From IMG/VR virus record IMGVR_UViG_3300032401_000010: a stretch of DNA of 64,000 bases. One strand, 5' to 3'. Each line of letters starts with the position of its first letter. Position 1 is the stretch's first letter. Shown one piece after another: positions 1 to 58,143 of the stretch. A model generated the notes under the pieces. It did not search any database and was not told the DNA's origin. It was given only the letters and a program-made list of their open reading frames with translations. Source of the stretch: a virus. A program made the position numbers and the translations under genes.

Positions 1-486
1 GGCCTTGAGTACCTGAAGAACATTGCCCTCGGCGGCTTTAATCTCAGAGCGAACCTCCATTAAAATTTTTCCAAGGTTATTTTGCCCATGTGTTGCATTA
101 TCAATCATTCCCCAAAAATCATCCCTCTTAGATCCTTTAACTAGTTCCCGTTCTCCAGTCATTAAAAGCTTTATCTTCAAATCAATATATTGCTTGAATT
201 TTGCTTCAACGACTTTTTTCATGAAAGGAATTCTTAAAGTATCCCAATCATCAATAAGCTTTACCTTACGACCAAGCTTCTTTGCCGTAGAAGCATCTCC
301 AACCTGAATAATTAATAGAGCATGGTCAGGATCTTTGGTCTTACAAGCTTGAAAGGCATGTTCATTTGTTAAAATAGTAAGACTATGGCCCTGCGGAAAT
401 GCCGGAATAAAATCAACAACTATCGGCCGTTGATAAAAATTCGAAAGAAACTCGTTATCCCCACGAAACTCTTTGATAGCGTCCAT
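1..486 (-). CDS. NADAR/YbiA-like (DUF1768) domain protein; partial gene, N-terminus at 486, runs off the window start
   Basis: Manual minus-strand translation from ATG (484-486): MDAIKEFRGDNEFLSNFYQRPIVVDFIPAFPQGHSLTILTNEHAFQACKTKD... The FLSNFY and EHxFQAxK motifs are characteristic of the YbiA/NADAR fold. Absent from the ORF track because there is no stop inside the window. Confidence 0.55.
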   Translation of the reverse strand, partial: MDAIKEFRGDNEFLSNFYQRPIVVDFIPAFPQGHSLTILTNEHAFQACKTKDPDHALLIIQVGDASTAKKLGRKVKLIDDWDTLRIPFMKKVVEAKFKQYIDLKIKLLMTGERELVKGSKRDDFWGMIDNATHGQNNLGKILMEVRSEIKAAEGNVLQVLKA

Positions 487-860: not shown

Positions 861-2663
861 TTAAACTTGAGCGTTAGGCAACTTCTGTTCTTTCGGAGGA
901 AGTGCAATAGCAGCCGAACTACCATTTCCTTCCTTAAGACGTTCAGAAATAGCATCAGCCACGCCTGTGGTTACAGATCCAATTTTGTTCATAGCTTCTT
1001 TCGTTTGCGGTCCTGCTGTTTGCAAGAACCCTTCAATAGCAGATGATATTCCCTGTCCATTCATGACGGCTGAAATAATTTTCGTAGCATCTTCTGGAGT
1101 TCCATAAAGCTGTGCTGTCATCTTGGTAAAAATTGTAGCAGAAGCATTTGCTGCTGCAATTCGAACCTGCTTCTCGGCCTCGACAGAAAGCTTTCGAATC
1201 TCGAAATCCTGAGCTTCCTTGCCGAATTCCTGCCTTGCCTGAAGTTCCGGTTTAATAACATTCTCGACCCTATTCTGATCAATCTTAACTCTTTCTTGAT
1301 CAACTTTAACAGGAACCATTTGAATAGCTTCAATGCCCTGGGCTTCCATCTTCTGAGCAGCAGAAGAGGCTTCCGCCTTTTTTGTTACTGCCAATGCGTC
1401 AGCGTCAGCAGATTTCTTACGAGCTTCTGCATCCCTTTCAATCTTGTAAGCTGATGCGTCTGCGTCTTTTTGTGCAGCAACAAGTTTCGATTCTGCTGCG
1501 GCTTCTGCTGTAATAACGGTCTTCTTCTTCTCGCGTTCAGCGGCTTCAGTAATCTTAACAGTTTCAATCTGCTGACTTGCTTTCTCACGAAGAGCTTGTG
1601 CAATAGCTAGTATTTCTTCTTCCTTGGCTCTTTTGCCAGCCGCAGAAGCAATTGCCTGCTGTTTCTGCTCTTGCGCAACAGCAACTATTTCTTGTTGTTT
1701 CTGAGCAGCTACTTCAAGCATTTTAGACTTCTCTACTTCAGCAAGCTCAACTTGACGCTGAGCCACGATAGAAGCCTCACGCGCTTGCCGCTCCGTGTCT
1801 GATTTAACTTGAGCAACTTCAGATGCCTGCTTAGCAGTAGCAAAAGCCTGGTCCTGTTCAAAAGCTAACAAATTCTTTTGAGTAGTAACATCTTGTGCTT
1901 TACGAGCTTGTTCACCTTCACGAACAAGACGGTTGCGCTCAGTAAGGTTTAACTGAGTTACCTCTGCAATCTTCTTGCGTCCCACCGCATCGAAAATATT
2001 GGTGTCTTTCAAATGTACTTCATCAGTTTGATCAAGCTTGGAGATAGTAACGGTCTCCAAAAATAAACCGTTCTCTGCCAAATCCTTACCAAGAATTTTT
2101 TCCACTTCCATGATAAAAGACTCTCTGTTTGTATTCAGCTCATCCAGTGTCATTTTCGCAGCAACAGTTCTGAATGCTGATACTAACTTGTCTTCGATAA
2201 GATGAGTTACCTCATCTGGTCTTGATAGCTTATCGCCCATTGTAGTAGCGGCTTGAATAATATTTGCTTCATCTGGCTTTACTCGGACGAAGAATTCAGC
2301 CTTGATATCTGCGCGAAGCTTATCGGCAGTAACCATGGCCTTCTCATTCTCAGCAGAAACTTCAAGCTTCAAGCTTCGGAGAGGGACCTTAATTAGTTCA
2401 TGAATAAATGATATGTAAAATGTTCCTCCGTCCAAAATTACTTTCTTACCACCCTGTCCAGTCTTCACAATAGCCTCATCAGCCCTTACCTTTACAAAAA
2501 GTTTTGTGATGATAATAGCACACAAAGAAAAGAAAATAAGAACAGAACCAAACCCAAGCAATGTTAGATTGATCATCAACCCAAGAGGATGACCCATAAT
2601 ACCGGCTGCCACTGGGCCACCGATTAAAAAAACTCCAAAAAGAAGCATAAGGAAAATTGTCAT
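861..2663 (-). CDS. SPFH/band-7 flotillin-like membrane scaffold protein (YqiK/FloA type) with long C-terminal coiled coil
   Basis: N-terminal transmembrane helix, SPFH-like core (ISFIHELIKVPLRSLKLEVSAENEKAMVTADKLRADIKAEFFVRV), then about 350 aa of Ala/Glu/Lys/Gln-rich coiled coil typical of flotillins. Confidence 0.7.
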   Translation of the reverse strand: MTIFLMLLFGVFLIGGPVAAGIMGHPLGLMINLTLLGFGSVLIFFSLCAIIITKLFVKVRADEAIVKTGQGGKKVILDGGTFYISFIHELIKVPLRSLKLEVSAENEKAMVTADKLRADIKAEFFVRVKPDEANIIQAATTMGDKLSRPDEVTHLIEDKLVSAFRTVAAKMTLDELNTNRESFIMEVEKILGKDLAENGLFLETVTISKLDQTDEVHLKDTNIFDAVGRKKIAEVTQLNLTERNRLVREGEQARKAQDVTTQKNLLAFEQDQAFATAKQASEVAQVKSDTERQAREASIVAQRQVELAEVEKSKMLEVAAQKQQEIVAVAQEQKQQAIASAAGKRAKEEEILAIAQALREKASQQIETVKITEAAEREKKKTVITAEAAAESKLVAAQKDADASAYKIERDAEARKKSADADALAVTKKAEASSAAQKMEAQGIEAIQMVPVKVDQERVKIDQNRVENVIKPELQARQEFGKEAQDFEIRKLSVEAEKQVRIAAANASATIFTKMTAQLYGTPEDATKIISAVMNGQGISSAIEGFLQTAGPQTKEAMNKIGSVTTGVADAISERLKEGNGSSAAIALPPKEQKLPNAQV

Positions 2664-2696
2664 TTGTTTTATTACTCCGTAACCATTTCTTGTTGT

Positions 2697-3329
2697 TTAG
2701 TTTTTCGTTAACTCAGAAAGCGCAATCACTTTATATATTTTATTATCAATATTATATTCCAACACAATAATTTTGGTTCCATCTATTATATTAGTGTTAT
2801 CACAACTTTGACAAATTATCTTGTGCAGCATTTTATTATTGTCACGCACTTGAGCAATACCAAATTTGGCATCAATATCTGTATAAGCCATGCCCTCTTT
2901 GCCTATTAAATCTTCAGCTGTACGAACATAGGATTCATTAGAAGGCATGAAGGAGCCAATACCTCTGCAAATCTTTCCGGTAAAGAAGACAACTCCTATA
3001 AACGCAATCCCAATTGAAAGCGGCCCGTAGATAATACTATATTTGAAAATGGGTTCCAATATCATACTAAAGCAAAGTCCAATGACTCCGAAGAGCATAT
3101 TCATTGTTAGCAATATAATTGAAAACGGAACTCGACCGATTCCAAAAAGATCTAAGAATGAATCTTTGGCAGACGCTTCATGACCATGTTCGATATCATG
3201 ATCAATATCATGTCCAATATCAAAATCATGATCTAAATTTACAAAACCTAAAGAATTGCCAATCCCCATCAAAATTGCCATAACAATAGGAATCGTAAAA
3301 AATATTGTAACCCAATTTAATTCCATCAT
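2697..3329 (-). CDS. NfeD-like membrane protein (short YqiJ type), partner of the SPFH protein
   Basis: Lies immediately upstream of the SPFH gene in the same orientation. Has multiple transmembrane helices, a His/Asp-rich loop (HDFDIGHDIDHDIEHGHE) and a C-terminal beta-rich soluble domain, matching NfeD architecture. Confidence 0.5.
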   Translation of the reverse strand: MMELNWVTIFFTIPIVMAILMGIGNSLGFVNLDHDFDIGHDIDHDIEHGHEASAKDSFLDLFGIGRVPFSIILLTMNMLFGVIGLCFSMILEPIFKYSIIYGPLSIGIAFIGVVFFTGKICRGIGSFMPSNESYVRTAEDLIGKEGMAYTDIDAKFGIAQVRDNNKMLHKIICQSCDNTNIIDGTKIIVLEYNIDNKIYKVIALSELTKN

Positions 3330-3538
3330 GAATTAGACTCCGAAATACAATCTTGTTCTTGCTCTAGCAAACTTTTTAGTTTTTTCCATACTAGACCATA
3401 GCCACGCGAAGACGCTACGACATGCGATAACTCCCAGTGGCATTCTCCAGATTTTACAGTGCTAGGAGGGACTATAACTCCTGAGCCATCTATATATTCA
3501 ATTTTAATATGATAGTCTTTCGTATTTATAGATTTCAC
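3326..3538 (-). CDS. hypothetical small protein
   Basis: 70-aa ORF whose start and stop overlap its neighbours (ATGA-type coupling). Confidence 0.35.
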   Translation of the reverse strand: MKSINTKDYHIKIEYIDGSGVIVPPSTVKSGECHWELSHVVASSRGYGLVWKKLKSLLEQEQDCISESNS

Positions 3539-4038
3539 GATTGAGCCGCCTCATCCTTGTTCTCTTTCGGACGATCTGCCCATTTTTCTCCAGACTCCAA
3601 ACTGCGATCATCGTTCCTCTTAAGGATGCCATTTTCGCACAGCCACTTAATCGCTATATAAACATCAGTATTATCCTCTAATGTCCCAACTTCATTCATG
3701 ATGTTGCGTGGAGTAACTGGTTTGTTAATTTTTTCTACATAATCACAAATTCCTACAATTAACTCCATATAGGACGGCTCAATATCCGCTACCGCAAGAT
3801 TTGGATTAATAACAATAGTCTTCTTACGGCGTTTTCTTTTAATGCTTTCATGACCAAAATGTTTTAGAATTTGGTCTAAATTTTTTGCCTTCAAGCGCAA
3901 CTTGTCTTGACGCCTTAGTTCCTGAAAAATTATTTCTTTTTCATTAACTACCCTTTCACAAATGTCTTTAGGGCTAGCAATGTTTTGATCAATACATTCT
4001 TCAATGTATGCTTCAACGAAATCTTTATTATCAACCAT
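3535..4038 (-). CDS. hypothetical protein
   Basis: 167-aa ORF with a basic patch (KRKRRKK); no assignable domain. Confidence 0.45.
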   Translation of the reverse strand: MVDNKDFVEAYIEECIDQNIASPKDICERVVNEKEIIFQELRRQDKLRLKAKNLDQILKHFGHESIKRKRRKKTIVINPNLAVADIEPSYMELIVGICDYVEKINKPVTPRNIMNEVGTLEDNTDVYIAIKWLCENGILKRNDDRSLESGEKWADRPKENKDEAAQS

Positions 4039-4399
4039 AACCTAACCTGTAGTGGTAAACTTTTATTCTTGCTTGGTTAAACAGTTTTTTGTTTTTATCT
4101 GACAATCGATGCTCAGAGGCTTTGAAAGTTCTCTCAAGTTCTTTTTCTGCACGTATCAATAAATTTAGATCTGAGTGTTGATCTAAAATGCATTTTTGCC
4201 CAGCAATTGTTATAGTAATTCTGTCCAAAACAGGACCGGGTTTATCTATAGTAACCATTACAGTAATAATTTGTGGTAGTGTGTTCTGATAGCTGTAACG
4301 AATATCACACCTTTTACATATACACGAGTCCCACGAATGGCCGAAATGTATAATGTAAAATATTGCGGTTCCCACAGAGCCAGTCTTGAAACCGTACAA
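4031..4399 (-). CDS. hypothetical protein
   Basis: 122-aa ORF overlapping the upstream gene by 8 nt. Confidence 0.35.
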   Translation of the reverse strand: MYGFKTGSVGTAIFYIIHFGHSWDSCICKRCDIRYSYQNTLPQIITVMVTIDKPGPVLDRITITIAGQKCILDQHSDLNLLIRAEKELERTFKASEHRLSDKNKKLFNQARIKVYHYRLGYG

Positions 4400-4432
4400 T
4401 AACCATCATAGCAATGATGTCAAGTACAAAAA

Positions 4433-4633
4433 TTATTTTATTTTTTCAATAGTAATAGAGTAAACATGTCCTAATTTATTTTTTACTTTTAAAATAGCTT
4501 GATACTGATTGTTAAAAACAACACTATTATTATCCTGAAACAAATCAATTAAATCATCAATAATCAAATCTGCATCAGCTTCTTGTGGCACAACAAGAGG
4601 ATGATTGGCAGCTACATACACAGTTTTATGCAT
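4433..4633 (-). CDS. hypothetical small protein
   Basis: 66-aa ORF. A TTGACA-N17-TATCTT promoter lies about 6 nt upstream of the ATG, giving a near-leaderless layout. Confidence 0.4.
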   Translation of the reverse strand: MHKTVYVAANHPLVVPQEADADLIIDDLIDLFQDNNSVVFNNQYQAILKVKNKLGHVYSITIEKIK

Positions 4634-4687
4634 GGTGCTAAGATAAGCATCTTCCTTAGAATGTCAAGCCCCTATTCAAATTAATAA

Positions 4688-5194
4688 TTATATTTCAACC
4701 AATTCTGTAAGAGCAACGAATAAATCTTCATAATCATCACATTTGCTCCAAAAATATTCTAAGCCAGCTAATTTTTCTACTCCAGCACAAACCATCAGAC
4801 GATCAAAAAGATTTGCATTAGACCACTTTGTTCCATCTGATTTTAAACAAAATTTACCATACATAGAATTTTTATCATGAACCAGATCTATTGCACTAGC
4901 AAAATAATCTAAACAAAGGCCATACAAAGTCGGAACTCCATCAAAACCAAAAACTACAATGAGATCATCTTCTATTGATGCGCAAATTGTTTTTATCTTG
5001 CCGTCATTAACAATCATTTGAGATGCATATACATTATATTTAGTAATTGTATTATCATATTGTATATCTAATGTTTTAGATATCAAAAAATTTTCTGCGG
5101 CTATTCCTTGTGTACCAAAAGATGATATTGGTATCATTCCGAAATTGCCCATTATAACTCGCACTAATTCTCTTCCTAAAATATCATGTGACAT
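4688..5194 (-). CDS. hypothetical protein
   Basis: 168-aa ORF; no motif. Confidence 0.45.
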   Translation of the reverse strand: MSHDILGRELVRVIMGNFGMIPISSFGTQGIAAENFLISKTLDIQYDNTITKYNVYASQMIVNDGKIKTICASIEDDLIVVFGFDGVPTLYGLCLDYFASAIDLVHDKNSMYGKFCLKSDGTKWSNANLFDRLMVCAGVEKLAGLEYFWSKCDDYEDLFVALTELVEI

Positions 5195-6512
5195 TTTGAT
5201 CCTTTACAATAATAAAAACTCCATAAGGATTTTTTTTAGCATATTTTGCCCAATGTTCCCTAGCCAAAAATATAACAGGAGCTTTTGGTTTTGGCGGGTA
5301 CGCACCAATATCCATATCGGAATAAAGTATTATCAAACTTGGTTTTAATTCAGAAGCCCGATTAAATGCGTCATGCATATCTGTGCCGCCACGACCAACA
5401 AATCTAACTTTTCGTTTTTTCAATTCATGTTTTATATTCTTTACTTTAATTACTTCATGAACAGTTGTGTCAGCAGTTATTAAAACTAAATTATCACAAA
5501 CAGAACCAAGTTTTTGCAAATGTCCCGAAGCATATTCAAACTCTACGCTATTCATAGAACCAGACGTATCAACAATTAATACTATCTTCGGAATGCTAGT
5601 TCCTTGCTCTCTTGGAATAAAAACATCAAACGGCAAATATTTAGGATCTGGTCGATACGGATTACGATCAGAATTTCCTTTTAAACATTCTTTAGCGAAC
5701 CTGATTAATACACGCTCAAATGGAACTTCTGATTTTTTAATTTGCTCTATATAATCTTCATAAAATCCAGGAAGTAATCCTCTTCCCATTCCTTTATGAC
5801 GAGCCGCCGCTTTAATTACTTCATCAATAATCTTTTGTTCATCAACTCCGTGAGGCATAGGAATTAAATCATTACCCCACGGCGCACCAAAATTTTCTAC
5901 CATCAATTGATTAATAGCTAATTCTCTATCTATTGGGCCAGTATGTTCTTTTGGAATTTCTTTCGAAACAGGTCTATTACAAGCCGGACACTTTGGACGC
6001 GGATCGTCGTCATCACAATATTCGTCATCTTGATGAAACTCTCTATTACAAATATGACAAAATGGAGTTATCTTTTTTTCTTGCCTTTTCTTTACTTCAG
6101 CATCTAAATCTTTATAAATTTGTTCAGCAGATTGTTCATTATAACAAGGATCATATAATCCAACAGGCATTTCAAATTGTTTAAGATCTTGAACAATCAT
6201 TGCATTAATGCTAAAATCACAGGCATAATTAAACGTCCTGTGTTTTCTAGTTTTTAATCTTTTAGAATGCAATAATGCTATGTGCAACCATTCATGCAAA
6301 GCAACAAACAATTTTTCTCTAAAATTCAGTTTATTCCATTTTTCAATACAAATAAAGATACATATCCCGTTTGTCGCAGCAAGAGGCCCCTTCGGACTAT
6401 TATTTATAATAATTGGCCAGGAAATTAATGGATATGTAAAAGGAGCTAATAATGCTAATGATGAAAATATTCTTTTAACTTCTTCTACATCTTTTTTATT
6501 ATCAGCATTCAT
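5184..6512 (-). CDS. vWA-domain protein with N-terminal HExxH metallopeptidase-like domain (DUF2201-like), partner of a MoxR ATPase
   Basis: Contains HEWLH (HExxH) near the N-terminus, a Cys-rich segment and a C-terminal vWA domain with an MIDAS-like DTSGSM motif. The adjacent gene is a MoxR AAA+ ATPase. Confidence 0.6.
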   Translation of the reverse strand: MNADNKKDVEEVKRIFSSLALLAPFTYPLISWPIIINNSPKGPLAATNGICIFICIEKWNKLNFREKLFVALHEWLHIALLHSKRLKTRKHRTFNYACDFSINAMIVQDLKQFEMPVGLYDPCYNEQSAEQIYKDLDAEVKKRQEKKITPFCHICNREFHQDDEYCDDDDPRPKCPACNRPVSKEIPKEHTGPIDRELAINQLMVENFGAPWGNDLIPMPHGVDEQKIIDEVIKAAARHKGMGRGLLPGFYEDYIEQIKKSEVPFERVLIRFAKECLKGNSDRNPYRPDPKYLPFDVFIPREQGTSIPKIVLIVDTSGSMNSVEFEYASGHLQKLGSVCDNLVLITADTTVHEVIKVKNIKHELKKRKVRFVGRGGTDMHDAFNRASELKPSLIILYSDMDIGAYPPKPKAPVIFLAREHWAKYAKKNPYGVFIIVKDQNVT

Positions 6513-6799
6513 AATCTCTTTTCAACCTCTTTATTATCTTTACCATCAATAAAAGGCTCGCATATATCCGATGCTTCTTGAACATATAATATTGCTCGAT
6601 TAATATGCATGCATGACTTATTTACTGCATCACTTAATTTTGTTTTTCCAAACATCTGATCACGAGCTGATTTACGTTCTAATTCAAGTAATATATAACT
6701 AAACAGCTTGGCTATACTGTCATATCTCATATTAGATATTTCAACGGCCAACTCCTTTAAAGAACCTTTGAAACCTTCTACAGTTAGAAATTCTCGCAT
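6509..6799 (-). CDS. hypothetical protein
   Basis: 96-aa ORF between the MoxR and vWA genes, with overlapping start and stop. Confidence 0.4.
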   Translation of the reverse strand: MREFLTVEGFKGSLKELAVEISNMRYDSIAKLFSYILLELERKSARDQMFGKTKLSDAVNKSCMHINRAILYVQEASDICEPFIDGKDNKEVEKRL

Positions 6800-6808
6800 T
6801 ATTTTCCA

Positions 6809-8134
6809 TTACGCCGCCAAGTATTGCACAATTTCTTCCATTAAATCTTCCGCCAAGCCTGAATCAAGTAAAAGATTCATGATTCTTGTCCTATGAATCA
6901 TTTGTAAATATAATGTTCTAATTTCAGGAACAAGATCCCTAACGAATTGAGCAAGATTGCTCATCGCTTTATCGTTAATAATAAAACCAGGACCACTCGG
7001 ATCTTTTTTACCTAAATGCTCTGGCGTAACTTGATCGGCTATAGCAAAAGTAGCTATACACTGATCACTAATTAAACTTTGTTCATCAGAACAGTTTTCA
7101 CGAACAGGAATACGTTTTGTCCCATCTAAAATTTCTTTAAAATTAAACTTCAAATACAAATCTCGATATGCAAAATATTCGGCTTGAGCTTGTTTGCCAA
7201 CAAAATCTATTAATTCGTTTCTTACACTTGTTTGAAAATTATCCATTTGCTTAGGATCATTTGGATTCGGATTAGTTCTTCTCTCAATAGAATCTATAAC
7301 CCTGCTAGCATTAGTCCAAGAACGAGGAGAACAAAATGAATAACTCTGTTCTAAATCGGCTCTGTGCAACCATTCTCCATTTTTGAATTTGTGGAATCCT
7401 ATAATATCTTTTCTAACACCATGAGGTATAGCCCACTTTATCCAAGTGTCCAAATCTGCCTCAATCTCTATATTAGCACAACGGTTCCTAAGCTCAGGCG
7501 GAATAGGATTAGATAAAAATGAGTCTTCCTCCCTATTAGCAGCGGCAATAACATACCAATCTCTGCCAAGTTGCATATCACCAACCACTCTGTTCTCTAG
7601 AATATGAGTTGCTGCTCCAAATTTAGCCTCAGAGGCTTTATCTAACTCATCTAGGAATACGATACCCCAAGAGCTGTTTTTAAGTTTTACGAGGTTCTCA
7701 GGCATAACGAACCGGGCAAAATTCTCTTTTTCGGACAAAGATGGAACAACAACTCCCTGAAGTTGTTCAATAGGCCTTTCAGCAAGCCTTAAAACAAGAC
7801 AGTGCGGCTCGATCAGTTTTAATAAATCATGAGAAGGATAATCAAATTGCAACAGTTTTAACTTTGCTTCAAACTCTTTAGTGAGTTTTGCCCGATGCTC
7901 ATCCAGCTCTTTTCCCAGATCCGTTTCCAGCCCTTGACTATTTATGGCTTTTAGATCTTCGGCGTATTTATTTTCTAAGTCATTAATCATACGTTCGCAA
8001 ACTAAAGAAATAACTAGCTCAGTTTTCCCAATTCCTGGTCCACCCCATAAAATAACTGGATAACTAAGATCTGGATTTTCCCAATTCCACTTTGTTAATA
8101 TTCTTTCTTTAGCTTGATTTATTGTGTTAGCCAT
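6809..8134 (-). CDS. MoxR-family AAA+ ATPase
   Basis: Walker A ILWGGPGIGKTELV and Walker B VFLDELDKA. Paired with the vWA protein, the classic MoxR-vWA layout. Confidence 0.75.
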   Translation of the reverse strand: MANTINQAKERILTKWNWENPDLSYPVILWGGPGIGKTELVISLVCERMINDLENKYAEDLKAINSQGLETDLGKELDEHRAKLTKEFEAKLKLLQFDYPSHDLLKLIEPHCLVLRLAERPIEQLQGVVVPSLSEKENFARFVMPENLVKLKNSSWGIVFLDELDKASEAKFGAATHILENRVVGDMQLGRDWYVIAAANREEDSFLSNPIPPELRNRCANIEIEADLDTWIKWAIPHGVRKDIIGFHKFKNGEWLHRADLEQSYSFCSPRSWTNASRVIDSIERRTNPNPNDPKQMDNFQTSVRNELIDFVGKQAQAEYFAYRDLYLKFNFKEILDGTKRIPVRENCSDEQSLISDQCIATFAIADQVTPEHLGKKDPSGPGFIINDKAMSNLAQFVRDLVPEIRTLYLQMIHRTRIMNLLLDSGLAEDLMEEIVQYLAA

Positions 8135-8138
8135 TGTT

Positions 8139-8939
8139 TCATTTTCCTAATTTAAGTTTGTGTCTTGTTCTGGTAACGCCGTCAAAATGATTTTGTTTAG
8201 CATTTAATGGTCGTAAATTATGTATAGACCAGCATTTTTTGAAATTTTCATGTTCCATTGAATCATAAGGCAAATCTGACTGAGGAATTATATGATCTAA
8301 TTGCCAAGTCCATGTTGAACTATCATTATCATTCCAGGTTTTTTTATTATATTTTCCTTGATTATTCCAATTCATCCATTGCTCAAACTTAGATTCTATA
8401 TGTTTTTTTATTTCATCTATATTTAAATAACATAACACAGAATGCTTTTTCTTTTGTGATAAACCATTTCTCTGTAAAGCAATTCTAACATAATTACTAA
8501 CGCCTAAACGCAATCTAAAATAGATATCATTTTTCTTGCGCTCTCTTATATGCTTTCTTCTCTTCTCTTTATTGCTTTCAATTTTATAATATTCTTTTTG
8601 ATAAAGAATAAATTTGTCTTTATTTTTTTTATAATATATTTGTTGTTGTCTTTTCCTTTCTTTTCTGTTTTTATTTAAACGCTTTTTAATCTTTTGTTTA
8701 TTTTTTTCATAATAAATATTACTTTTAATAGATAATTCTTTTTTATGAGAAGTTTTATATTTTTTTCTTATTAAACTAATATTTTCTATATTTTTTTTAT
8801 AATATTTTTGTTGTTTGTTACTAATGCATGTTTTACATTGTCTTCTATATCTATATTTATTTGCATAATTGCGTATTGAAAAATTATCAATATTTAATAA
8901 ATTTTTACATTTTGTGCATTTTAATTTATTTTCTTCCAT
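8139..8939 (-). CDS. HNH endonuclease, free-standing, with Cys4 N-terminus and Lys-rich low-complexity middle
   Basis: N-terminal CxxC...CxxC and a C-terminal HNH motif (LDHIIPQSDLP...N...NHFDG). Inserted between the MoxR and Rnl1-like genes. Confidence 0.6.
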   Translation of the reverse strand: MEENKLKCTKCKNLLNIDNFSIRNYANKYRYRRQCKTCISNKQQKYYKKNIENISLIRKKYKTSHKKELSIKSNIYYEKNKQKIKKRLNKNRKERKRQQQIYYKKNKDKFILYQKEYYKIESNKEKRRKHIRERKKNDIYFRLRLGVSNYVRIALQRNGLSQKKKHSVLCYLNIDEIKKHIESKFEQWMNWNNQGKYNKKTWNDNDSSTWTWQLDHIIPQSDLPYDSMEHENFKKCWSIHNLRPLNAKQNHFDGVTRTRHKLKLGK

Positions 8940-8953
8940 TCTTTATTTTAATT

Positions 8954-10165
8954 TCAAATAGTTTCTTCTAGCTCAGACTGTATTTCTTTTAAAGTTGGAT
9001 CAACCGTCAAACATAATTGCAACATGGTTTTAGCTGCGTTTGCTGGAATTTTCCCAGCAACATTAAGATCGCCTAATGCAAACGTTTTTAAATCCGGAGT
9101 CTTATTCCTTTTTAATGCAAATAAAGCTCCAGGCCATAATTTTGTCATAGCCTCTAAAGCAAAATCTTTCATTATCAAATGATGTTTAAGGCTATCATAA
9201 TCAATTTGAGTACGACGAAAAACTTCAGCAATTATTGGTTTTAAACGCCTTATTCTATTTGCTATCATCTCAGGCATCATACCAATAATATCATCATCTT
9301 TTTCTAATAAGATAACCTCCACGCACCCTCTGTAGGAAGTAGATAAGCTGTCACGCATATGATTATATATGACATACAACGGACTCTTTACTTTAACTCT
9401 ATTGAAGTTGGCGTCCTTAATAACAACGCCTTCTTTTTCTTTTGGATCCCAGTCTTTTACGACTTGGATCATATGATTTATATTTTTAAAATGATATTTT
9501 TCTACCGCAGGAACCTTTAAATTTGCCGCCAAAACTTCTGGCGAATACTCAGTTAAAGTTTTGTTATCACGGACTGCTAATAATGTTATAGATAATTTCT
9601 TGTAATCACAAACTATTCTATTAAAAGGACTTGTTAATTCAAAACAGTATGTGCAATTCTTGTCTATCTGCAACATCCCTTGGTTTCCATAGTTCATTAA
9701 ATCTTGAATATCATTTCCAAGATTCATTTCTTTTACTGCTAAATCAAATAATTTAGCAAAGGTTATGTCGCTTTCATCTATATTGCCATCAGCCTCCGGC
9801 CTAGAACGAGTTCCTACACACCACCTATCTTGTTCAAGATCCCAGTAAGCAATGCACATCGTTCCGTCTAATTTGTCTTCAAAACAAGCTGTGCTCCAAT
9901 CTATCTCGGCTGCTGTTTCTTTTTGTTCTAGATTGAAAAATCTAAACATTGGACAAGCAACTATATCATACGTTCCTTCTCTTAGGATTAATCCTCTGCA
10001 TTGTTGCGAAAGCGGATCTTGCTCTCTTGCTTCAATTTGATCATATGTTAACCCTATTTTCCCATTATGAATATAAGATTTAACTCCATGTTCTATTTTT
10101 AGATCTTGAAGAGTTTTTCCGGAACGCAAATATTTTTGAACGTGTAGCATTATGTCAAATACCAA
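8954..10165 (-). CDS. RNA ligase 1 (T4 RnlA-like)
   Basis: Segments align by eye to T4 Rnl1: CRGLILREGTYDIVACPMFRFFNLEQ matches CRGIMFEMDG..RPMEKFFNLNE; the adenylyltransferase KxDG motif I is FEDKLDGTM (T4: LTKEDGSL); EGVVIKD...FNRVKVKSPLYV matches the T4 motif IV/V region. Confidence 0.75.
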   Translation of the reverse strand: MVFDIMLHVQKYLRSGKTLQDLKIEHGVKSYIHNGKIGLTYDQIEAREQDPLSQQCRGLILREGTYDIVACPMFRFFNLEQKETAAEIDWSTACFEDKLDGTMCIAYWDLEQDRWCVGTRSRPEADGNIDESDITFAKLFDLAVKEMNLGNDIQDLMNYGNQGMLQIDKNCTYCFELTSPFNRIVCDYKKLSITLLAVRDNKTLTEYSPEVLAANLKVPAVEKYHFKNINHMIQVVKDWDPKEKEGVVIKDANFNRVKVKSPLYVIYNHMRDSLSTSYRGCVEVILLEKDDDIIGMMPEMIANRIRRLKPIIAEVFRRTQIDYDSLKHHLIMKDFALEAMTKLWPGALFALKRNKTPDLKTFALGDLNVAGKIPANAAKTMLQLCLTVDPTLKEIQSELEETI

Positions 10166-10185
10166 GGTGATAGGTTTCTAATCGA

Positions 10186-10431
10186 CTATATTTTTACATC
10201 AAATATTTTAGATAACTTACTTAAATCAATTCTTTCAGGAAGATCTACTTTCATTTTTTCCTCAACATATGATTCAAAATCAAACACTTCGCCTTCTGTT
10301 CTTCTGCGGAATAATTCTTCCATACATTTAATAGCAAGATCTTTATTTGAATTAATTAATCTGTATGCTACAACATATGCCGCTAAAACTTTAGATGGCG
10401 CCGTTTTTATTTCATCATCATTATTTGTCAT
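10186..10431 (-). CDS. hypothetical small protein
   Basis: 81-aa ORF. Confidence 0.35.
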   Translation of the reverse strand: MTNNDDEIKTAPSKVLAAYVVAYRLINSNKDLAIKCMEELFRRRTEGEVFDFESYVEEKMKVDLPERIDLSKLSKIFDVKI

Positions 10432-10762
10432 TTTTATTCACTATAGCTATTAATTCTTTAAACGGTTTGAATCTTGGGAATATTTTCTTTTTATTATTAT
10501 TTACTTTTGGACTAGACATAAAGAATTTTCCTAATCCTCTTAACATCACTGTATTACTTTTTAACATTTGATTTCTTATTTCTTGAAAGAATAATTTGAT
10601 AATGATAGCTGAAGATTCTTCGTTAAGCCCAGTTGAAGCTTGAATTTTTGCTATTAATTCTTCTAACCCATCAGGAGTAACGGGAATATTGTCATCTACA
10701 GATTCTAAATATTCTGTAATTCCTGGTAGAAGATCTACTTCGTTTTCTTCAAAATCTGCCAT
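10421..10762 (-). CDS. hypothetical protein
   Basis: 113-aa ORF. Confidence 0.4.
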   Translation of the reverse strand: MADFEENEVDLLPGITEYLESVDDNIPVTPDGLEELIAKIQASTGLNEESSAIIIKLFFQEIRNQMLKSNTVMLRGLGKFFMSSPKVNNNKKKIFPRFKPFKELIAIVNKNDK

Positions 10763-10774
10763 ACTTCGTATATT

Positions 10775-10860
10775 ATTTGATCCTATTTGTATATAACAGA
10801 GATCTATTTGATCCTATTCGAATACTCTTCCGCGTACTCTTCCGCGAATTGTTCCGCGCG
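10775..10860. repeat. cluster of short direct repeats (ATTTGATCCTATT x2; TACTCTTCCGCG x2 plus TTCCGCG) in an intergenic region
   Basis: Seen directly in the 10775-10860 sequence between two minus-strand genes. Confidence 0.7.
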
Positions 10861-10889
10861 CACGTAGCAAATGTCATGCCAAATAAAAC

Positions 10890-11300
10890 TTAACTGGTTT
10901 GACGAATAACCATTTGAGTATTCTTTATTATTGCTTCCATTACAGCTAATACATTTTTGATATCTTTTGTTTCTATATTTTCTATATTCGAAACAAGATG
11001 TTTAACGGCTTTCAAATGATCTTCTAAATGAATTAATGAATTATCGAGCTGCGTATCTGCCGCTATTGGTTCTTTTTGATATGCCGAATCCGCTTCTCTT
11101 CGTAATAAATTATATGAATCTTCAAATGCCGAACTCTTCCCAATCATTAACCCCCTAGCATATGATGTTTTATCTTCATCTTTGTCATACTCTTCTTTTG
11201 AGGCTTCCTGTAAAGATCTAATAAAACCAGCAACTTTGTTAAAAGTTTCGTGTTGATGTTGATATTGTTTTTTTGTTAATAACATCGATGGTGATATCAA
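10890..11300 (-). CDS. hypothetical protein
   Basis: 136-aa ORF. Direct repeats lie in the downstream intergenic region. Confidence 0.4.
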   Translation of the reverse strand: MISPSMLLTKKQYQHQHETFNKVAGFIRSLQEASKEEYDKDEDKTSYARGLMIGKSSAFEDSYNLLRREADSAYQKEPIAADTQLDNSLIHLEDHLKAVKHLVSNIENIETKDIKNVLAVMEAIIKNTQMVIRQTS

Positions 11301-11443
11301 TATAAGTCGGTCAAATCTTAAGTCAAGACGGAAACTTTATTCAATTTTTTATAGAAATTTATTCTATCATTGTTTAGTTATAATAATGTACAAGTATTAT
11401 AAAAATTACCTAATTTAACAGAAATTAGCACCGGAGAACGGCT

Positions 11444-12373
11444 ATGGATATCATAATTAAACGTGGTGAGATAGTAAATTTAGAAGATTTACCACCTTGG
11501 TCTATAGCCTTGGACGGATTTGTACAAGGCCCTAAAATTGATACAGAAAATCATCGCTATAGTTTTGATCACCATGCCGGTTGTCTTAGATATTGCACAA
11601 CTAGCGCTTGTATGCAGGCTTGGACAGCAGTGTTATTAGGATTGGACGCAGACAAATATACGATATATGCAAATGATGTAGATGGCGATGTTTGTGCTGC
11701 AATATGGTGTTTGAAAAATCCTGAAAAATGTAGCGACCCCAGAGCTACTAAATTAATTAATGCTATGGGCCTTGGTGATATGCACGGCGGAGCCTTTCCA
11801 AATAACGGGATGACAAAAACAATCGAATGGGTCTGCTCCCCAGAGACAGATTCCAAAAGAGATCAAGACTATTGGAAGCTTTCCGATAATGGCTTGAATT
11901 CCATTTTGGAAGCCGTGCTACATCGAATAGATACATACGTAGAAGGTGAAGCAAGCATAGAGGTTTCCAAACAGCCTAAGCACGGCGAATATAAAATTAT
12001 TCGAAACGAAAATAATTGGGTGTTGGTCGAATCTACAGACCCACATGCTTTTAGCGCAATCTATCAAGCCGGGTTTGATAGAATCGTTTTGGCAAGACCG
12101 CAAGATGATAATTCTATAGCTTATTCAATTGCCAAAAAAAGCGACTTCATAGATCGTTTTCCGTTAGAAATAATGTATAGCAAATTAAATGAACTGGAGC
12201 CTGGTTGGGGTGGCGGCAGCACAATTGGCGGAGCCCCAAGGAATCATGACGGCTCTAGAAGTAAATTAACTATGGAACAAGTAGCAGAAATTATAGATGC
12301 AATTGTGGCCGAAGAACATATATCAAAAACAAAATCATCGCTTCCGCCAGATAAGATTACTTTACAGACTTAG
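11444..12373 (+). CDS. hypothetical protein with DHH-like and GGG-rich motifs (possible phosphoesterase); the only confident plus-strand gene in this neighbourhood
   Basis: GGAGAA ribosome-binding site 8 nt before the ATG. Motifs FDHHAG, VDGDVCAA and GWGGGSTIGGAPRNHDG resemble DHH-family motifs but in non-canonical order. Confidence 0.45.
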   Translation: MDIIIKRGEIVNLEDLPPWSIALDGFVQGPKIDTENHRYSFDHHAGCLRYCTTSACMQAWTAVLLGLDADKYTIYANDVDGDVCAAIWCLKNPEKCSDPRATKLINAMGLGDMHGGAFPNNGMTKTIEWVCSPETDSKRDQDYWKLSDNGLNSILEAVLHRIDTYVEGEASIEVSKQPKHGEYKIIRNENNWVLVESTDPHAFSAIYQAGFDRIVLARPQDDNSIAYSIAKKSDFIDRFPLEIMYSKLNELEPGWGGGSTIGGAPRNHDGSRSKLTMEQVAEIIDAIVAEEHISKTKSSLPPDKITLQT

Positions 12374-12662
12374 CATGTAGAAACTGAGAGAACCGCTTTC
12401 GAATGGAGGCTAGCATCCTCACAAAGAGTCCGTGCCTCAACCTCGTCTGTAAAAAGGACCAGATCAACAGGTTCAGTCTCTTGCTTATCTCGGCTTACCG
12501 AGCAATCTTTTAGAAATGTTTTTCTGGAGCAAGACTGGTAATCAATGGTTCTCCTGATCGAAGGGGCTGACGCTTCACCTCGAATCACTTCCTCGGTGTG
12601 TTTTTGACACAGACAGTTATCCTCCCATCGCGCCTCGGGACATAGCAATCTCATACACTTTA

Positions 12663-13100
12663 TCATTCGGCAACACCCCCATAAATTTTAATGAACGTAT
12701 AAGCATCTTCTCGTTTTTGGAACCACCAACCTGCATCGTAAATCTCGCCATCATTAAGACAGATAGAGCCATTGCGAGACCAATCACGCGAGTAGAACCT
12801 CCCCGTAGCAATATCATCAAATTCGCGCGTTATATCCTCGGACGATTTGTCAACTTTGTTTTTGATTGCAAGCTTTACAAATGGTGGATGACGATTTTTT
12901 TCGCCACTAGAATCCACAAAATCACATCCTGGATAACCATCTAACGACACTTCATGCCAATCCCACATCAATAATTTCTTTTTCCATCCGGCATTGTGCT
13001 CCATGTGCGTCTGCCCCGGAATGCATCTAGCCTCACATTCGACACATCTAGCATCACGCAAATCAGCTCGCTGGCTCGGATTGTGTTTAAATGATGTCAT
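12663..13100 (-). CDS. hypothetical protein encoded in a GC-rich island
   Basis: 145-aa ORF in a roughly 50% GC segment. Possible Cys-active-site motif (NGSICLNDGEIYD) with weak L,D-transpeptidase-like resemblance. Confidence 0.35.
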   Translation of the reverse strand: MTSFKHNPSQRADLRDARCVECEARCIPGQTHMEHNAGWKKKLLMWDWHEVSLDGYPGCDFVDSSGEKNRHPPFVKLAIKNKVDKSSEDITREFDDIATGRFYSRDWSRNGSICLNDGEIYDAGWWFQKREDAYTFIKIYGGVAE

Positions 13101-13325
13101 GATTTGATGCTCCTAATAAAAACGTCGTAGTTGTCCCTGTGCCAGCTCCGTTGCACCCGGTCGTGACCCTCATGCGCTCGCCGAACAGACTAGCGCCATC
13201 GTATCGTCCCGGCGCTTGTGACATGTTGGCGTAGCCCATGTATGTCGCGAACAGCAGCGCGATGATGTCCGGATCGGAGGTGCCAACGACGAGGCTATGC
13301 GCCGGAATGTAATAGGCGTTCATCG

Positions 13326-14375
13326 TCATTTTGTCAAAAAACCTTCGCCATGAAGTTTTAATATTACTCGCCCAAGTTTATCATGTCTGCGCTCAAACAC
13401 AGGGCGAATAACCACGCCTTCTCGAACGTGTTTGTTATCTAATGTTGAACTGCCTTCAGCAAGCTCATAAGCTTTCTCTTTATTCCATGGCCCCATATAA
13501 AGAACAGGAGCTATAGGCAAATCAAGAGCGTTAGTTATAGAAATAAACTCATCAAAATCTACATACCTCCGAAGATTACGATCATATATATCAAATAATC
13601 TAAGACCAGCCTCACCGCGCTTGACACTATATGGAAAACCTCCGGTGTAACCACATGTCTCACCATAGATAACAATTTTTCTATTGTTAGCCGCCTGCCA
13701 TGACGCAAGCTTATTTTCTAAATTATAAAGCTCAGCGGCCTTGCCCCAGCCACCAATACCACTTTTCTTTACATTAGTTCTAGAACCAATCCATAAACGA
13801 TTATCTTCATAACAAAATCTTGCGTTTTCTCCATGAATCTTTTCGACCATAATTACTTCTTCGCCATCAACAAAAATATTTTTCCAGCGCCTTAATCCTT
13901 CAACATCAGTATACGTAGGCATGTAATGATAATCAGGCTCATTCAGTCTTGTGTCGCCAAAGTTATATCCCTCATCTGGTGGCGGCTCATATTTATCAAT
14001 ACCTAACTTTTCCCTAACGTCTTCGCCTTCAACCATGCCTTCGTCAGCATGAATAAGTAAACCCATGCTAAATACACCACGAAGGCGCCTAGCTTTAATC
14101 CTGCGATACTTTGCTGGTACTTGACCAATGGGAGGCGTAGGCTCTTTTATATTTCCTTCCTTGTCCTTTTTCGGAGGAGGAGCAAGGAAGTAGAATTTTT
14201 CATTATCTGGACATAAACTATCTACCGGAATATAAACAACTAAATCTCCAGGCTTAAATTCTCCAAGTCTAACGATAGCAGGATAGTCCGCTACCTTAGT
14301 AATACCTAAGGTGTCGGCATCGGGATGTTTCGTAATTTCCCCAATACGAACAACTTCTATATGAAATTCGGTCAT
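13326..14375 (-). CDS. RNA ligase with N-terminal tRNA-binding OB (Myf/EMAP-like) domain
   Basis: N-terminus IGEITKHPDADTLGITKV resembles the HP(D/N)ADKL tRNA-binding OB fold. The nucleotidyltransferase motif I is MVEKIHGENARFCY (KxHG(E/T)N, as in Rnl2, DraRnl and NgrRnl). Confidence 0.6.
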   Translation of the reverse strand: MTEFHIEVVRIGEITKHPDADTLGITKVADYPAIVRLGEFKPGDLVVYIPVDSLCPDNEKFYFLAPPPKKDKEGNIKEPTPPIGQVPAKYRRIKARRLRGVFSMGLLIHADEGMVEGEDVREKLGIDKYEPPPDEGYNFGDTRLNEPDYHYMPTYTDVEGLRRWKNIFVDGEEVIMVEKIHGENARFCYEDNRLWIGSRTNVKKSGIGGWGKAAELYNLENKLASWQAANNRKIVIYGETCGYTGGFPYSVKRGEAGLRLFDIYDRNLRRYVDFDEFISITNALDLPIAPVLYMGPWNKEKAYELAEGSSTLDNKHVREGVVIRPVFERRHDKLGRVILKLHGEGFLTK

Positions 14376-14391
14376 TTGTTTTTCTTTTTTG

Positions 14392-14463
14392 AGCTGGTGA
14401 AGGGATTTGAACCCCTGACCGGTAGCTTACAAAACTACTGCTCTACCCCTGAGCTACACCAGC
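14392..14463 (-). tRNA. tRNA-Thr (anticodon UGU); no encoded CCA
   Basis: Minus-strand sequence GCTGGTGTAGCTCAGGGGTAGAGCAGTAGTTTTGTAAGCTACCGGTCAGGGGTTCAAATCCCTTCACCAGCT folds as a cloverleaf: 7-bp acceptor stem, D arm GCTC/GAGC, anticodon stem GTAGT/GCTAC with loop TTTGTAA, and T arm AGGGG-TTCAAAT-CCCTT. Confidence 0.85.
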
Positions 14464-14499
14464 ATGTGTTTTTATAATCTAACCATCCGCAACCGAATG

Positions 14500-14841
14500 T
14501 CAACCCCCTCTTTTTCTTTCTATAAAATAATTTTCGTAATAGAATGCTAGTTCTTTACCAGAAATATATGTCTCTACAACATTTGCTGCTACAATAAATG
14601 GATCATCTTCCGCCCTTACTGTTCTATTGAACAACCAAATTAGCCGGTGCCTTCTGTCTTCTGGCAGATTAGTATCGGCCTCAAATTTTTCTATTAAGAA
14701 CAAACCGATACAATACAAATCAATTGTACGTTGGTTTGCTCTCCATTGAGGAGGTTGCCCCTCTCTCATTTTTGCTTCGAACCTTGCTTTATGAGGCTCA
14801 AGTTCAAGTAGTAATTGTTCTTTATTATACAAATTGACCAA
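14500..14841 (-). CDS. hypothetical protein
   Basis: 113-aa ORF. Confidence 0.4.
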   Translation of the reverse strand: MVNLYNKEQLLLELEPHKARFEAKMREGQPPQWRANQRTIDLYCIGLFLIEKFEADTNLPEDRRHRLIWLFNRTVRAEDDPFIVAANVVETYISGKELAFYYENYFIERKRGG

Positions 14842-15427
14842 GAATTATTTTAGCAAGAAATTTTGAATCTAACTTTTTAATTGCTTGCTCAATGATTGCA
14901 CCATGATCAAAAGCAATTTCTGAACATTCTGTAACATCACACCACGCAACTTCTTGTGCGTCATCTGCCGCTTTTGGATTAACACTATTTATATCAATTA
15001 CAGACGAGTACGCATGTGAAATGACTCGTCCTCTTGGATCTCTTTCAGGAGCATCAAACACTCCAACAAAAATATGAATTGCCCCAGCGCTGCGCTGTCC
15101 AGCACAAGCATATAGATCAATGCCAGTCTCTTCTAGCACTTCTCTAATAGAAGCATCACTAATAGTTTCATCCATATCCACAAATCCTCCAGGCAAAGCC
15201 CAGCAATTTTGAAAAGGTGGATTCTTTCTTTTTATTAATAATACTTTCAAACCATTGCCAGGCTCATCTAAACGTTTTTTTGTATCAATGCCAAATATCA
15301 CATGGTCTACGGTAACACTTGGTCTTGGAAAGTTGTAAGCGTAATACTTCTTTCCATCAATTTCAATTATCTTATCATCTGTTTGCGGCATTTTGTTTTT
15401 TCTTTCAGTAAATTGATCGTCTGTCAA
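14825..15427 (-). CDS. Nudix hydrolase
   Basis: Canonical Nudix box GGFVDMDETISDASIREVLEETGI (Gx5Ex7REVxEExGI). Confidence 0.75.
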   Translation of the reverse strand: MTDDQFTERKNKMPQTDDKIIEIDGKKYYAYNFPRPSVTVDHVIFGIDTKKRLDEPGNGLKVLLIKRKNPPFQNCWALPGGFVDMDETISDASIREVLEETGIDLYACAGQRSAGAIHIFVGVFDAPERDPRGRVISHAYSSVIDINSVNPKAADDAQEVAWCDVTECSEIAFDHGAIIEQAIKKLDSKFLAKIILGQFV

Positions 15428-15447
15428 ACCATAACAGACGGCAAGCC

Positions 15448-15684
15448 TTATTTAATTTCAAAACTTGGAATAATAATAGTTGTTGCTGACTCTGGCATAA
15501 ATTGATCATCTGTTAAATCAGAGAGAATATAGAGCGTATTATATCTTGATTCAATAAAATCGAACAGGTTCATTATTGAAACCACAAGTTCCACTTCTTC
15601 AAGCTCTTTGTTAAGTAGTAATGCGTTAAACTCTTCTTCCAGAACTTTTGTCTGCTTTTTATATTCACCTATAGTTTGTGGCAT
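15448..15684 (-). CDS. hypothetical small protein; its start region sits inside a 29-bp tandem duplication
   Basis: 78-aa ORF. Its N-terminal codons MPQTIGEYK appear twice in the DNA at about 15658-15713. Confidence 0.35.
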   Translation of the reverse strand: MPQTIGEYKKQTKVLEEEFNALLLNKELEEVELVVSIMNLFDFIESRYNTLYILSDLTDDQFMPESATTIIIPSFEIK

Positions 15685-48327: not shown

Positions 48328-48543
48328 AACAATGTCAATATATTCACTAAGTCAAAAACTAGGAAAAATTAATTTGGCTGGCACTTCAGGTACATAATCT
48401 GTTGGGAGCACACCGGTACCGTCGCATACGCCACAAGTTTCGCATGGATGACAGTCGCCAACATGCCAGCCACGCCCTTTGCACTAATGACACCGTACCT
48501 TATTTGCTTGATCCTTATGCTCGTCCATCACACATTCTCCGTG

Positions 48544-48635
48544 TCTCAAGTTCTGGAGTTGAACCAGAATCTCCCGGCCTATGGTCCGTACCGAAGTGCG
48601 TAGCACCGGAGTTCTACCGATTGAACTAACTTGAG
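48544..48635 (-). ncRNA. tRNA-like structured RNA (canonical acceptor, D and T arms; non-canonical anticodon/variable region)
   Basis: Minus strand: CTCAAGT-TA-GTTC-AATCGGTA-GAAC ... TCTGG-TTCAACT-CCAGA-ACTTGAG-A. The 41-nt central segment has no clean 5-bp/7-nt anticodon arm. Locally GC-rich and free of ORFs. Confidence 0.4.
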
Positions 48636-57934: not shown

Positions 57935-58143
57935 TATTTGTTAAACCATACAACATGAGTATATGTTTGATCTATGTTTGGTAGATCTATTTGTTCGTCA
58001 GTCATCTCTGACGATGTAGCATAATAGCCATTGCCATCATAACCATTATAACTACCAGATCGCACTGCTTTAGAAAACTCTTCCAAGGTCATGTGTTCCC
58101 CGTAATCAGGTATTGGTTCCATCCGTCTCGGCTTACTGAGCAA
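57934..58143 (-). CDS. hypothetical small protein
   Basis: 69-aa ORF. Confidence 0.3.
   Translation of the reverse strand: MLSKPRRMEPIPDYGEHMTLEEFSKAVRSGSYNGYDGNGYYATSSEMTDEQIDLPNIDQTYTHVVWFNK

Follow-up and report, generated by a model that had tools for sequence, protein, structure and literature searches.

Introduction

In bacteria, the members of the yqiJ-yqiK and yuaF-yuaG (NfeD2-SPFH2) operons co-evolve and undergo transfer jointly (PMC2636767). YqiK forms foci and is oriented towards the cytoplasm (PMC10434171), and the FloA-NfeD pair stabilises unfolded membrane proteins without ATP (PMC11222466). A different gene pair has been described in phages. Genes 24 and 25 of N4 belong to the core set of 14 genes in N4-like phages (PMC4193335), and group 2.2 jumbo phages carry a MoxR AAA+ ATPase paired with a vWA protein that has an N-terminal metallopeptidase (Iyer et al. 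2021, PMC7824862). By analogy to the MoxR-vWA system needed for tail assembly of Acidianus two-tailed virus (ATV), Iyer et al. proposed a role in virion assembly and proteolytic processing for this pair (PMC7824862). Both kinds of gene pair are found in IMG/VR record IMGVR_UViG_3300032401_000010, of which a stretch of 64,000 nt (the window) was analysed and the region 861-8134 was examined. Herein, we compare the flotillin-type (SPFH) gene and its YqiJ-like partner with the AAA+ ATPase and vWA-zincin genes that precede them in this region. A first-pass annotation of the window had proposed that the two pairs could form one membrane-associated assembly. Our results do not support that proposal. 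They make it probable that two independent modules lie about 1.9 kb apart by chance in a co-directional jumbo-phage gene array, and that the flotillin cassette is a laterally acquired membrane scaffold.

Results

The two gene pairs are probably independent

The window carries phage-type genes (rIIA, NAD-dependent DNA ligase, NAD synthetase, RNA ligases, and homing endonucleases). Since its close relatives are located on contigs of 231-459 kb, we assign it to an uncultured jumbo phage. In a megablast search with the 7.3-kb region, none of 50,697 phage records matched. The open reading frames (ORFs) of the four genes were confirmed at the positions first annotated, co-directional and all on the minus strand. 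In order of transcription, they are:

6809-8134, minus strand: AAA+ ATPase, probably MoxR-class, N4 gp24-like, 441 aa
5184-6512, minus strand: zincin and vWA protein, N4 gp25-like (DUF2201_N + DUF2201), 442 aa
2697-3329, minus strand: YqiJ-like (NfeD2-like) membrane protein, 210 aa
861-2663, minus strand: SPFH protein of the flotillin/YqiK type (SPFH2), 600 aa

The pairs had been described as immediately consecutive; they are separated by 1,854 nt and five ORFs (168, 66, 122, 167, and 70 aa; 3326-5194). Pfam matches to Band_7, YqiJ_N, DUF2201_N, and DUF2201 vWA demonstrated that the family and fold calls of the first-pass annotation were essentially right.

Seven loci of one phage clade, whose ATPases are 55-100% identical, were compared. 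Their backbone reads HU-orf81-(Rnl1)-AAA-vWA-orf168-orf167-(NADAR)-HU-DksA-ClpP-...-FtsK. The AAA+ and vWA-zincin genes were kept in the same order in 7/7 loci and were directly adjacent in L017 only. The YqiJ-SPFH-orf105 cassette was found only in the window, in L002, and in L003 (plus its fragments L004 and L005); there was no tblastn match to it at E<=0.01 in L009, L015, L016, and L017. Between orf167 and NADAR lies a slot of variable content: it is occupied by the SPFH cassette in the window and by an RNA ligase in L009 and L016, and it is empty in L017. A 104-aa gene of L009 with a transmembrane (TM) segment and beta structure was considered as an NfeD-like remnant and dropped, its similarity to YqiJ being non-significant (E 0.39).

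In L002, the cassette itself is broken (8859-11197). The SPFH gene has a 20-nt deletion flanked by ACTG, and an out-of-frame deletion has removed the His/Asp-rich loop from the YqiJ gene. At the same locus, AAA+ and vWA are full length, with 87-90% identity, and the neighbouring genes are intact. An assembly error is unlikely because the shortened SPFH and YqiJ products recur across several assemblies. Given that the AAA+/vWA genes are kept in all seven loci and that YqiJ-SPFH is confined to the sub-lineage of the window, the gene distribution indicates that the two pairs are independent modules and that the AAA+/vWA pair would not depend on the flotillin cassette.

The intact copies of the cassette are maintained. 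Against a 93%-identical relative, the ratio of nonsynonymous to synonymous substitution rates (dN/dS) was 0.045 for SPFH, 0.147 for YqiJ, and 0.037 for AAA, with dS at ~0.8-1.0; the value for the vWA gene against L003 is invalid, as the L003 gene has an in-frame stop. The intact flotillin cassette genes are under strong purifying selection. The GC content at third codon positions (GC3) of the phage genes was 0.29-0.34, compared with an overall GC of ~0.67 at the bacterial loci. This amelioration of GC3 to phage values implies that the cassette has probably resided in the phage for long. Purifying selection on the intact copies, together with the breakage in L002, suggests an accessory module that is functional yet conditionally dispensable. 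Alternatively, the cassette may be a functionless passenger heading for decay, which would fit the two broken genes of L002 and the lack of the cassette in four relatives. However, this is unlikely given the intact ORFs in the window, L003-L005, and L014, the low dN/dS values, the ameliorated GC3, and several apparently independent acquisitions on very large viral contigs.

We also compared flotillin loci of bacteria and of other viruses. In three bacterial loci (L006, L012, and L013), a YqiJ-type gene lies directly upstream of the flotillin gene, with a Pfam YqiJ_N match in L006 and L012, and none of the three has AAA+/vWA genes near the flotillin. Among cultured phages, a related YqiJ-SPFH pair (35% identity) was found only in the 469-kb Sinorhizobium phage Phosso, where AAA+/vWA genes are not near the pair; the further SPFH matches among phage records were to unannotated records of 1.5-20 kb. 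A scan of IMG/VR with the SPFH protein alone gave zero matches. An alignment-based scan, in which a profile-derived pattern was run non-exhaustively over 2.9 million contigs, gave eight flotillin loci. A YqiJ gene was upstream in 6/8, two of the loci were on 381- and 543-kb contigs, and no AAA+/vWA genes were present within 6 kb of any of the eight.

These observations bear on the model of a single membrane machine, in which SPFH, YqiJ, the vWA-peptidase, and the MoxR ATPase act together and the AAA+/vWA pair loads or remodels a flotillin cage for superinfection exclusion or lysis timing. It has in its favour that all four genes are co-directional in one dense array and that SPFH cages elsewhere partner AAA+ proteases such as FtsH (PMC2636767). 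Nevertheless, the five intervening genes, the independence of the pairs everywhere else examined (bacteria, Phosso, IMG/VR, N4-like and RaK2-like phages, and the clade loci), and the pseudogenised SPFH pair beside intact AAA/vWA genes in L002 are at odds with it. In addition, neither predicted membrane segments nor membrane-related domains were found in the AAA+ and vWA proteins. The phyletic patterns largely refute the model, and we consider it highly improbable.

The flotillin protein and its YqiJ-like partner

The SPFH protein matches Pfam Band_7 (PF01145) over residues 58-235 (3.8e-20, 73 bits against a cut-off of 23.6) and, in a PDB search, human flotillin-1 over residues 62-426 (3e-6). 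Two hydrophobic segments lie in residues 1-61 (Kyte-Doolittle). The presumably helical, A/E/K/Q-rich region that follows the SPFH domain spans ~250-280 aa (residues ~250-500/520) and not the 350 aa of coiled coil proposed earlier; the A/E/K/Q/R fraction is 0.54-0.74 over residues 251-500. The protein ends in a Gly/Ser-rich tail. PHROGs contains no family for SPFH, for YqiJ, or for any of the five small ORFs.

Over its full length, the SPFH protein is 45-54% identical to bacterial proteins annotated as YqiK or flotillin, mostly of Myxococcota, and its identity to other viral flotillins is 29-43%. Because the window protein is nearer to bacterial than to other viral flotillins, several independent captures of the flotillin pair by very large viruses are suggested. 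By domain content and gene order, the SPFH/YqiJ pair is of the bacterial NfeD2-SPFH2 flotillin operon type and is rare in phages. GenBank labels the Phosso protein only as 'SPFH domain-containing protein', and we found no paper that describes a yqiJ-flotillin operon in a phage genome.

In Phosso (L001), a TelA-like 'toxic anion resistance' gene (8409-9470) lies two genes downstream of the YqiJ-SPFH pair. TelA has been taken up in the context of entry exclusion (Iyer et al., PMC7824862), and its position would fit a setting of membrane stress or exclusion for the Phosso pair.

The YqiJ-like gene ends 33 nt upstream of the SPFH gene, in the same order as in the bacterial loci L006, L012, and L013. 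In its product, a TM helix is followed by a His/Asp-rich loop (DHDFDIGHDIDHDIEHGH), two more TM helices, and a beta-rich C-terminal domain. It matches Pfam YqiJ_N (PF21001; 2e-9, 38 bits against a cut-off of 23), as do 8/9 of the aligned YqiJ-like homologues. The earlier designation as an NfeD-like partner is thus borne out by YqiJ_N, but the window protein itself has no Pfam match to NfeD (PF01957), nor to YqiJ_OB (PF07290). The alignment with the Phosso homologue (BLASTP 7e-11) runs through the C-terminal region, and the Phosso protein matches YqiJ_OB (3.3e-6), which is indirect support for a C-terminal OB fold. When a profile of nine YqiJ-like homologues was compared with the PDB, the best match was YuaF (2k14), at the C-terminal domain, with E=0.34. 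An AlphaFold2 (AF2) model made from a 5-sequence alignment has four beta strands at residues 157-203, with a predicted local distance difference test score (pLDDT) of 44.

Mass spectrometry has found SPFH-domain proteins in virions of Erwinia jumbo phages (PMC7760394, PMC6034870), and the window protein might likewise be virion-associated or structural. We give this little credence: the Erwinia virion proteins are not BLAST-detectable relatives and no PHROG matched, the window encodes a bacterial-type flotillin of full length that has a membrane hairpin and is paired with a 3-TM protein, and the flotillin gene lies among non-structural genes and is lost in close relatives. No sequence relationship to the SPFH proteins in virions of Erwinia or RaK2-like phages was detectable, and we rejected a link to them.

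The AAA+/vWA-zincin pair

The ATPase matches Pfam AAA_5 (1.9e-5) and phrog_1297 (5.6e-43). It is a putative member of the MoxR/dynein/midasin (helix-2 insert) clade, and there is no match to Pfam AAA_3, the family of MoxR proper. Walker A (GPGIGKT), Walker B (FLDELD), N200 (sensor 1), and R218 (arginine finger) are invariant or nearly so in 49 homologues. A long helical hairpin is inserted behind Walker A, and the AF2 model has a pLDDT of 87.

The vWA protein matches DUF2201_N (PF13203; 7e-16, 59 bits against a cut-off of 23.2), the DUF2201 vWA domain (PF09967; 1.9e-15, 57.5 bits against a cut-off of 26.4), and phrog_1314 (3.4e-55), which is mislabelled as 'HNH endonuclease'. The HEWLH motif noted earlier was located at residues 73-77, and the DxSxS of the metal ion-dependent adhesion site (MIDAS; DTSGS) at residues 315-319. 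H73/E74/H77/H82 and D315/S317/S319 are invariant across N4-like phages, RaK2-like phages, and the clade of the window. Single-sequence PDB searches with the ATPase and with the vWA protein gave zero matches, and a profile of the vWA-zincin homologues gave only non-significant PDB matches (integrin I-domain, BchD vWA, and MJ1213 protein; E 0.16-0.9).

Two further observations concern the vWA protein. A zinc-ribbon-like CxxC...CxxC insert lies between the peptidase and vWA domains (residues ~153-179); the window, L002, L009, and L015 have it, and it is missing from L016, L017, PBECO4, XbC2, and PA26. In L003, a 19-kb relative, a TAG replaces the Trp codon 75 within HEWLH of the vWA-zincin gene (4466-5791). 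It would remove the peptidase motif and may be either a genuine nonsense variant or an artefact of assembly.

In the window, the vWA gene lies 297 nt downstream of the ATPase gene, with orf96 between them. This ORF has 60% identity to its counterparts in L002 and L003 and no match in L009 and L015-L017, and on this distribution we take it as a lineage-specific filler in a variable slot. The number of ORFs between the ATPase and vWA genes is 0 in L017, 1 in the window, 3 in L015, 8 in L016 (11311-13397), and ~12 in L009 (4.2 kb; 11299-15502).

Both pairs had been called rare in phages. This holds for the flotillin pair but not for the AAA+/vWA pair, as tblastn matched the ATPase in 551 phage records and the vWA protein in 270. 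In Pseudomonas phage PA26, gp33 and gp34 are adjacent and annotated as N4 gp24-like and gp25-like. PBECO4 and XbC2, both RaK2-like jumbo phages, have the pair beside the structural module. SPFH is absent from both settings. The AAA+/vWA-zincin pair is a common phage module that has already been described.

Another possibility is that this pair is an RNA-repair cofactor of the neighbouring RNA ligase 1, following a Ro/TROVE-vWA-like logic, and has no part in assembly; Rnl1 is indeed upstream of the ATPase gene in 6/7 clade loci (though other genes intervene in 5/6) and a second RNA ligase occupies the SPFH slot of L009 and L016, but the adjacency is loose, with homing endonucleases and up to 6 small ORFs in between, L017 has the pair without Rnl1, and the N4-like and RaK2-like pairs have no adjacent RNA ligase, that of the RaK2-like phages adjoining structural genes instead, so that we regard this as very doubtful.

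Neighbouring genes

Every gene from window position 1 to ~11,300 is on the minus strand, and the genes are densely packed. The other genes of the array, in order of transcription, are:

10421-10762, minus strand: HU-like gene, 113 aa, first of the listed array
10186-10431, minus strand: orf81, 81 aa
8954-10165, minus strand: T4-type RNA ligase 1 (Rnl1), 403 aa
8139-8939, minus strand: HNH-motif ORF, 266 aa, GC 0.227
6509-6799, minus strand: orf96, 96 aa, between the ATPase and vWA genes
4688-5194, minus strand: orf168, 168 aa
4433-4633, minus strand: orf66, 66 aa
4031-4399, minus strand: orf122, 122 aa
3535-4038, minus strand: orf167, 167 aa
3326-3538, minus strand: orf70, 70 aa
491-808, minus strand: orf105, 105 aa, acidic
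1-486, minus strand: NADAR gene, C-terminus lost at the window edge

The orf168, orf66, and orf167 genes are clade backbone. There is a weak DUF2442-like match for orf70, which had no tblastn match in any related locus examined. The orf105 gene follows SPFH in L002-L005 and, weakly, in L014, and is absent from L009 and L015-L017. It has no Pfam or PHROG match, and only one other 50%-identity cluster was found among 1.84 billion representative proteins. From its distribution, it appears to be essentially an orphan gene that travels with the YqiJ-SPFH cassette.

The NADAR gene, which had been placed just upstream of the flotillin gene, is real (NCBIfam TIGR02464; 4.4e-21, 75.8 bits against a cut-off of 73.7), but with respect to transcription it is downstream of SPFH, with orf105 between them. 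NADAR (PF08719) also occurs in the relatives, including L016 and L017, which have no SPFH. By gene order, we assign it to the clade backbone beside the insertion slot and to neither pair. A NADAR gene was also seen on the 381-kb IMG/VR contig (L022 3635-4162), ~1.1 kb upstream of a YqiJ-flotillin pair that was apparently acquired independently. The repeated proximity of NADAR and flotillin in the window and L022 could be due to chance, or it could be the sign of an accessory or anti-defence island.

PADLOC gave no defence-system match for the region, with one weak AAA match only (PDC-M37B, 4.8e-4). RNA elements were absent from the region in the tRNA and Rfam scans, and the outcome of the promoter and terminator scans was no better than chance and did not define transcription units. 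Elsewhere in the window, ARAGORN and Rfam agree on a tRNA-Thr(UGU) at 14391-14463. A tRNA-Arg(ACG) of 93 nt was called by ARAGORN at 48543-48635 on the minus strand, where the Rfam tRNA model was below its gathering score; it may be an intron-containing tRNA, a degenerate tRNA, or a false call.

Several RNA ligases of the Rnl1 and PF09414 types occur in the clade (window 8954-10165 and 58133-59470, the latter on the minus strand; L009 19361-19969; L016 17504-18115), and the same array carries two HU-like genes and DksA, ClpP, and FtsK-like genes. This content suggests a large auxiliary or RNA-repair gene region. The HNH-motif ORF (8139-8939), flanked by RNA ligase 1 and the ATPase, is Lys-rich at its N-terminus and carries an HNH-like motif (DH...N...N..H) at its C-terminus. 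L002 lacks it here, and L003 has an opposite-strand gene with a weak GIY-YIG match at this site, which looks like an insertion hotspot for homing endonucleases.

Discussion

The findings are best explained by two modules that probably work separately. For the AAA+/vWA-zincin pair, analogy with MoxR-vWA systems suggests that a client protein would be bound through a peptide by the vWA/MIDAS domain, remodelled by a hexameric ATPase, and then processed by the fused HExxH peptidase. Such activity would most likely be needed when a phage protein complex matures or is assembled (PMC7159879, PMC7824862). For the flotillin cassette, a bacterial yqiJ-yqiK cassette together with orf105 would have been inserted into the variable slot between orf167 and NADAR. 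The flotillin would be anchored to the host inner membrane, on its cytoplasmic side, by the N-terminal hydrophobic hairpin, and the SPFH domain and the long helical region may drive oligomerisation into a cage or a microdomain scaffold. YqiJ, with three TM helices and an OB-like domain, would be the membrane partner of the flotillin. Our best guess at the benefit to the phage is that the host membrane and its proteins would be stabilised, either over the course of a long infection or in the face of membrane-damaging stress or defence. We prefer this membrane-maintenance reading because of the analogy with FloA-NfeD. Superinfection exclusion would be the main alternative benefit, at which the TelA gene near the Phosso pair hints.

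Several points weigh against this two-module account or parts of it. The array from 8134 to 1 is tight and co-directional, with overlapping start/stop codons, and shared transcription of both pairs is possible. Unlike the flotillins of L022 and L025, the window SPFH protein has no Pfam Flot (PF15975) C-terminal domain at E<=0.1. The OB fold of the YqiJ-like C-terminus is putative (pLDDT 44 in the AF2 model; E=0.34 to YuaF). The AAA+/vWA pair of this clade does not adjoin structural genes. Finally, the role of bacterial YqiK is poorly defined, and the phage benefit can therefore only be inferred.

The AAA+/vWA-zincin pair was already known and this locus adds little about it, although as a conserved phage module it is worth study in its own right. 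What is useful here is the indication that very large phages repeatedly acquire and keep a bacterial flotillin-NfeD operon, whereby a membrane-scaffold module joins the host-like accessory genes gathered by such phages. What bacterial flotillins do is still poorly defined, above all for the YqiK of Gram-negative bacteria. An intact operon that a phage keeps under purifying selection gives a natural gain-of-function setting for this question. A bolder and quite tentative proposal, which we hold to be possible rather than likely, is that very large phages (the clade of the window, Phosso, and the 381- and 543-kb IMG/VR contigs) have repeatedly captured the NfeD2-flotillin operon and build membrane-scaffold cages from it. 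If so, such cages could maintain the integrity and energisation of the host membrane over a long infection, weaken the action of abortive-infection effectors that permeabilise membranes, or shut out superinfecting phages, and would represent a new class of SPFH-scaffold function in phage counter-defence or host maintenance.

Comparison with known systems

The window cassette shares with the bacterial yqiJ-yqiK and yuaF-yuaG operons an NfeD-like gene directly upstream, and a flotillin in which a membrane anchor at the N-terminus is followed by an SPFH domain and then by a long, presumably helical region. The partner protein likewise has the YqiJ_N domain and the His/Asp-rich loop. In contrast to bacterial yqiJ-yqiK, the window cassette is found in a low-GC jumbo phage (GC 0.33-0.43, compared with ~0.67 in the closest bacteria), has no Pfam matches to Flot, YqiJ_OB, or NfeD, has the orphan orf105 attached, and lies within a phage gene array with no obvious promoter of its own. 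Phosso and the IMG/VR loci L022 and L025 resemble the window in that a YqiJ-flotillin pair occurs in viral genomes of 380-540 kb, but their flotillins are only 29-35% identical to the window protein, and the pairs are canonical versions with YqiJ_OB and Flot domains.

The AAA+/vWA-zincin pair shares the phrog_1297/phrog_1314 families, the order of ATPase followed by zincin-vWA, and the conserved HExxH, MIDAS, and Walker motifs with the N4 gp24/gp25-like pair and that of jumbo phages in group 2.2 (PMC7824862). Its identity to the N4 gp24/gp25-like versions of cultured phages is 18-26% only. It further differs from them in the small ORF between the genes (up to 4.2 kb in relatives), in the CxxC...CxxC insert, and in its position among auxiliary genes and not beside structural genes. 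Compared with NorQ-NorD, CbbQ-CbbO, and the ATV MoxR-vWA system, the window ATPase lacks an AAA_3 match and has a helical hairpin insert after Walker A, and its vWA partner carries a fused zincin peptidase.

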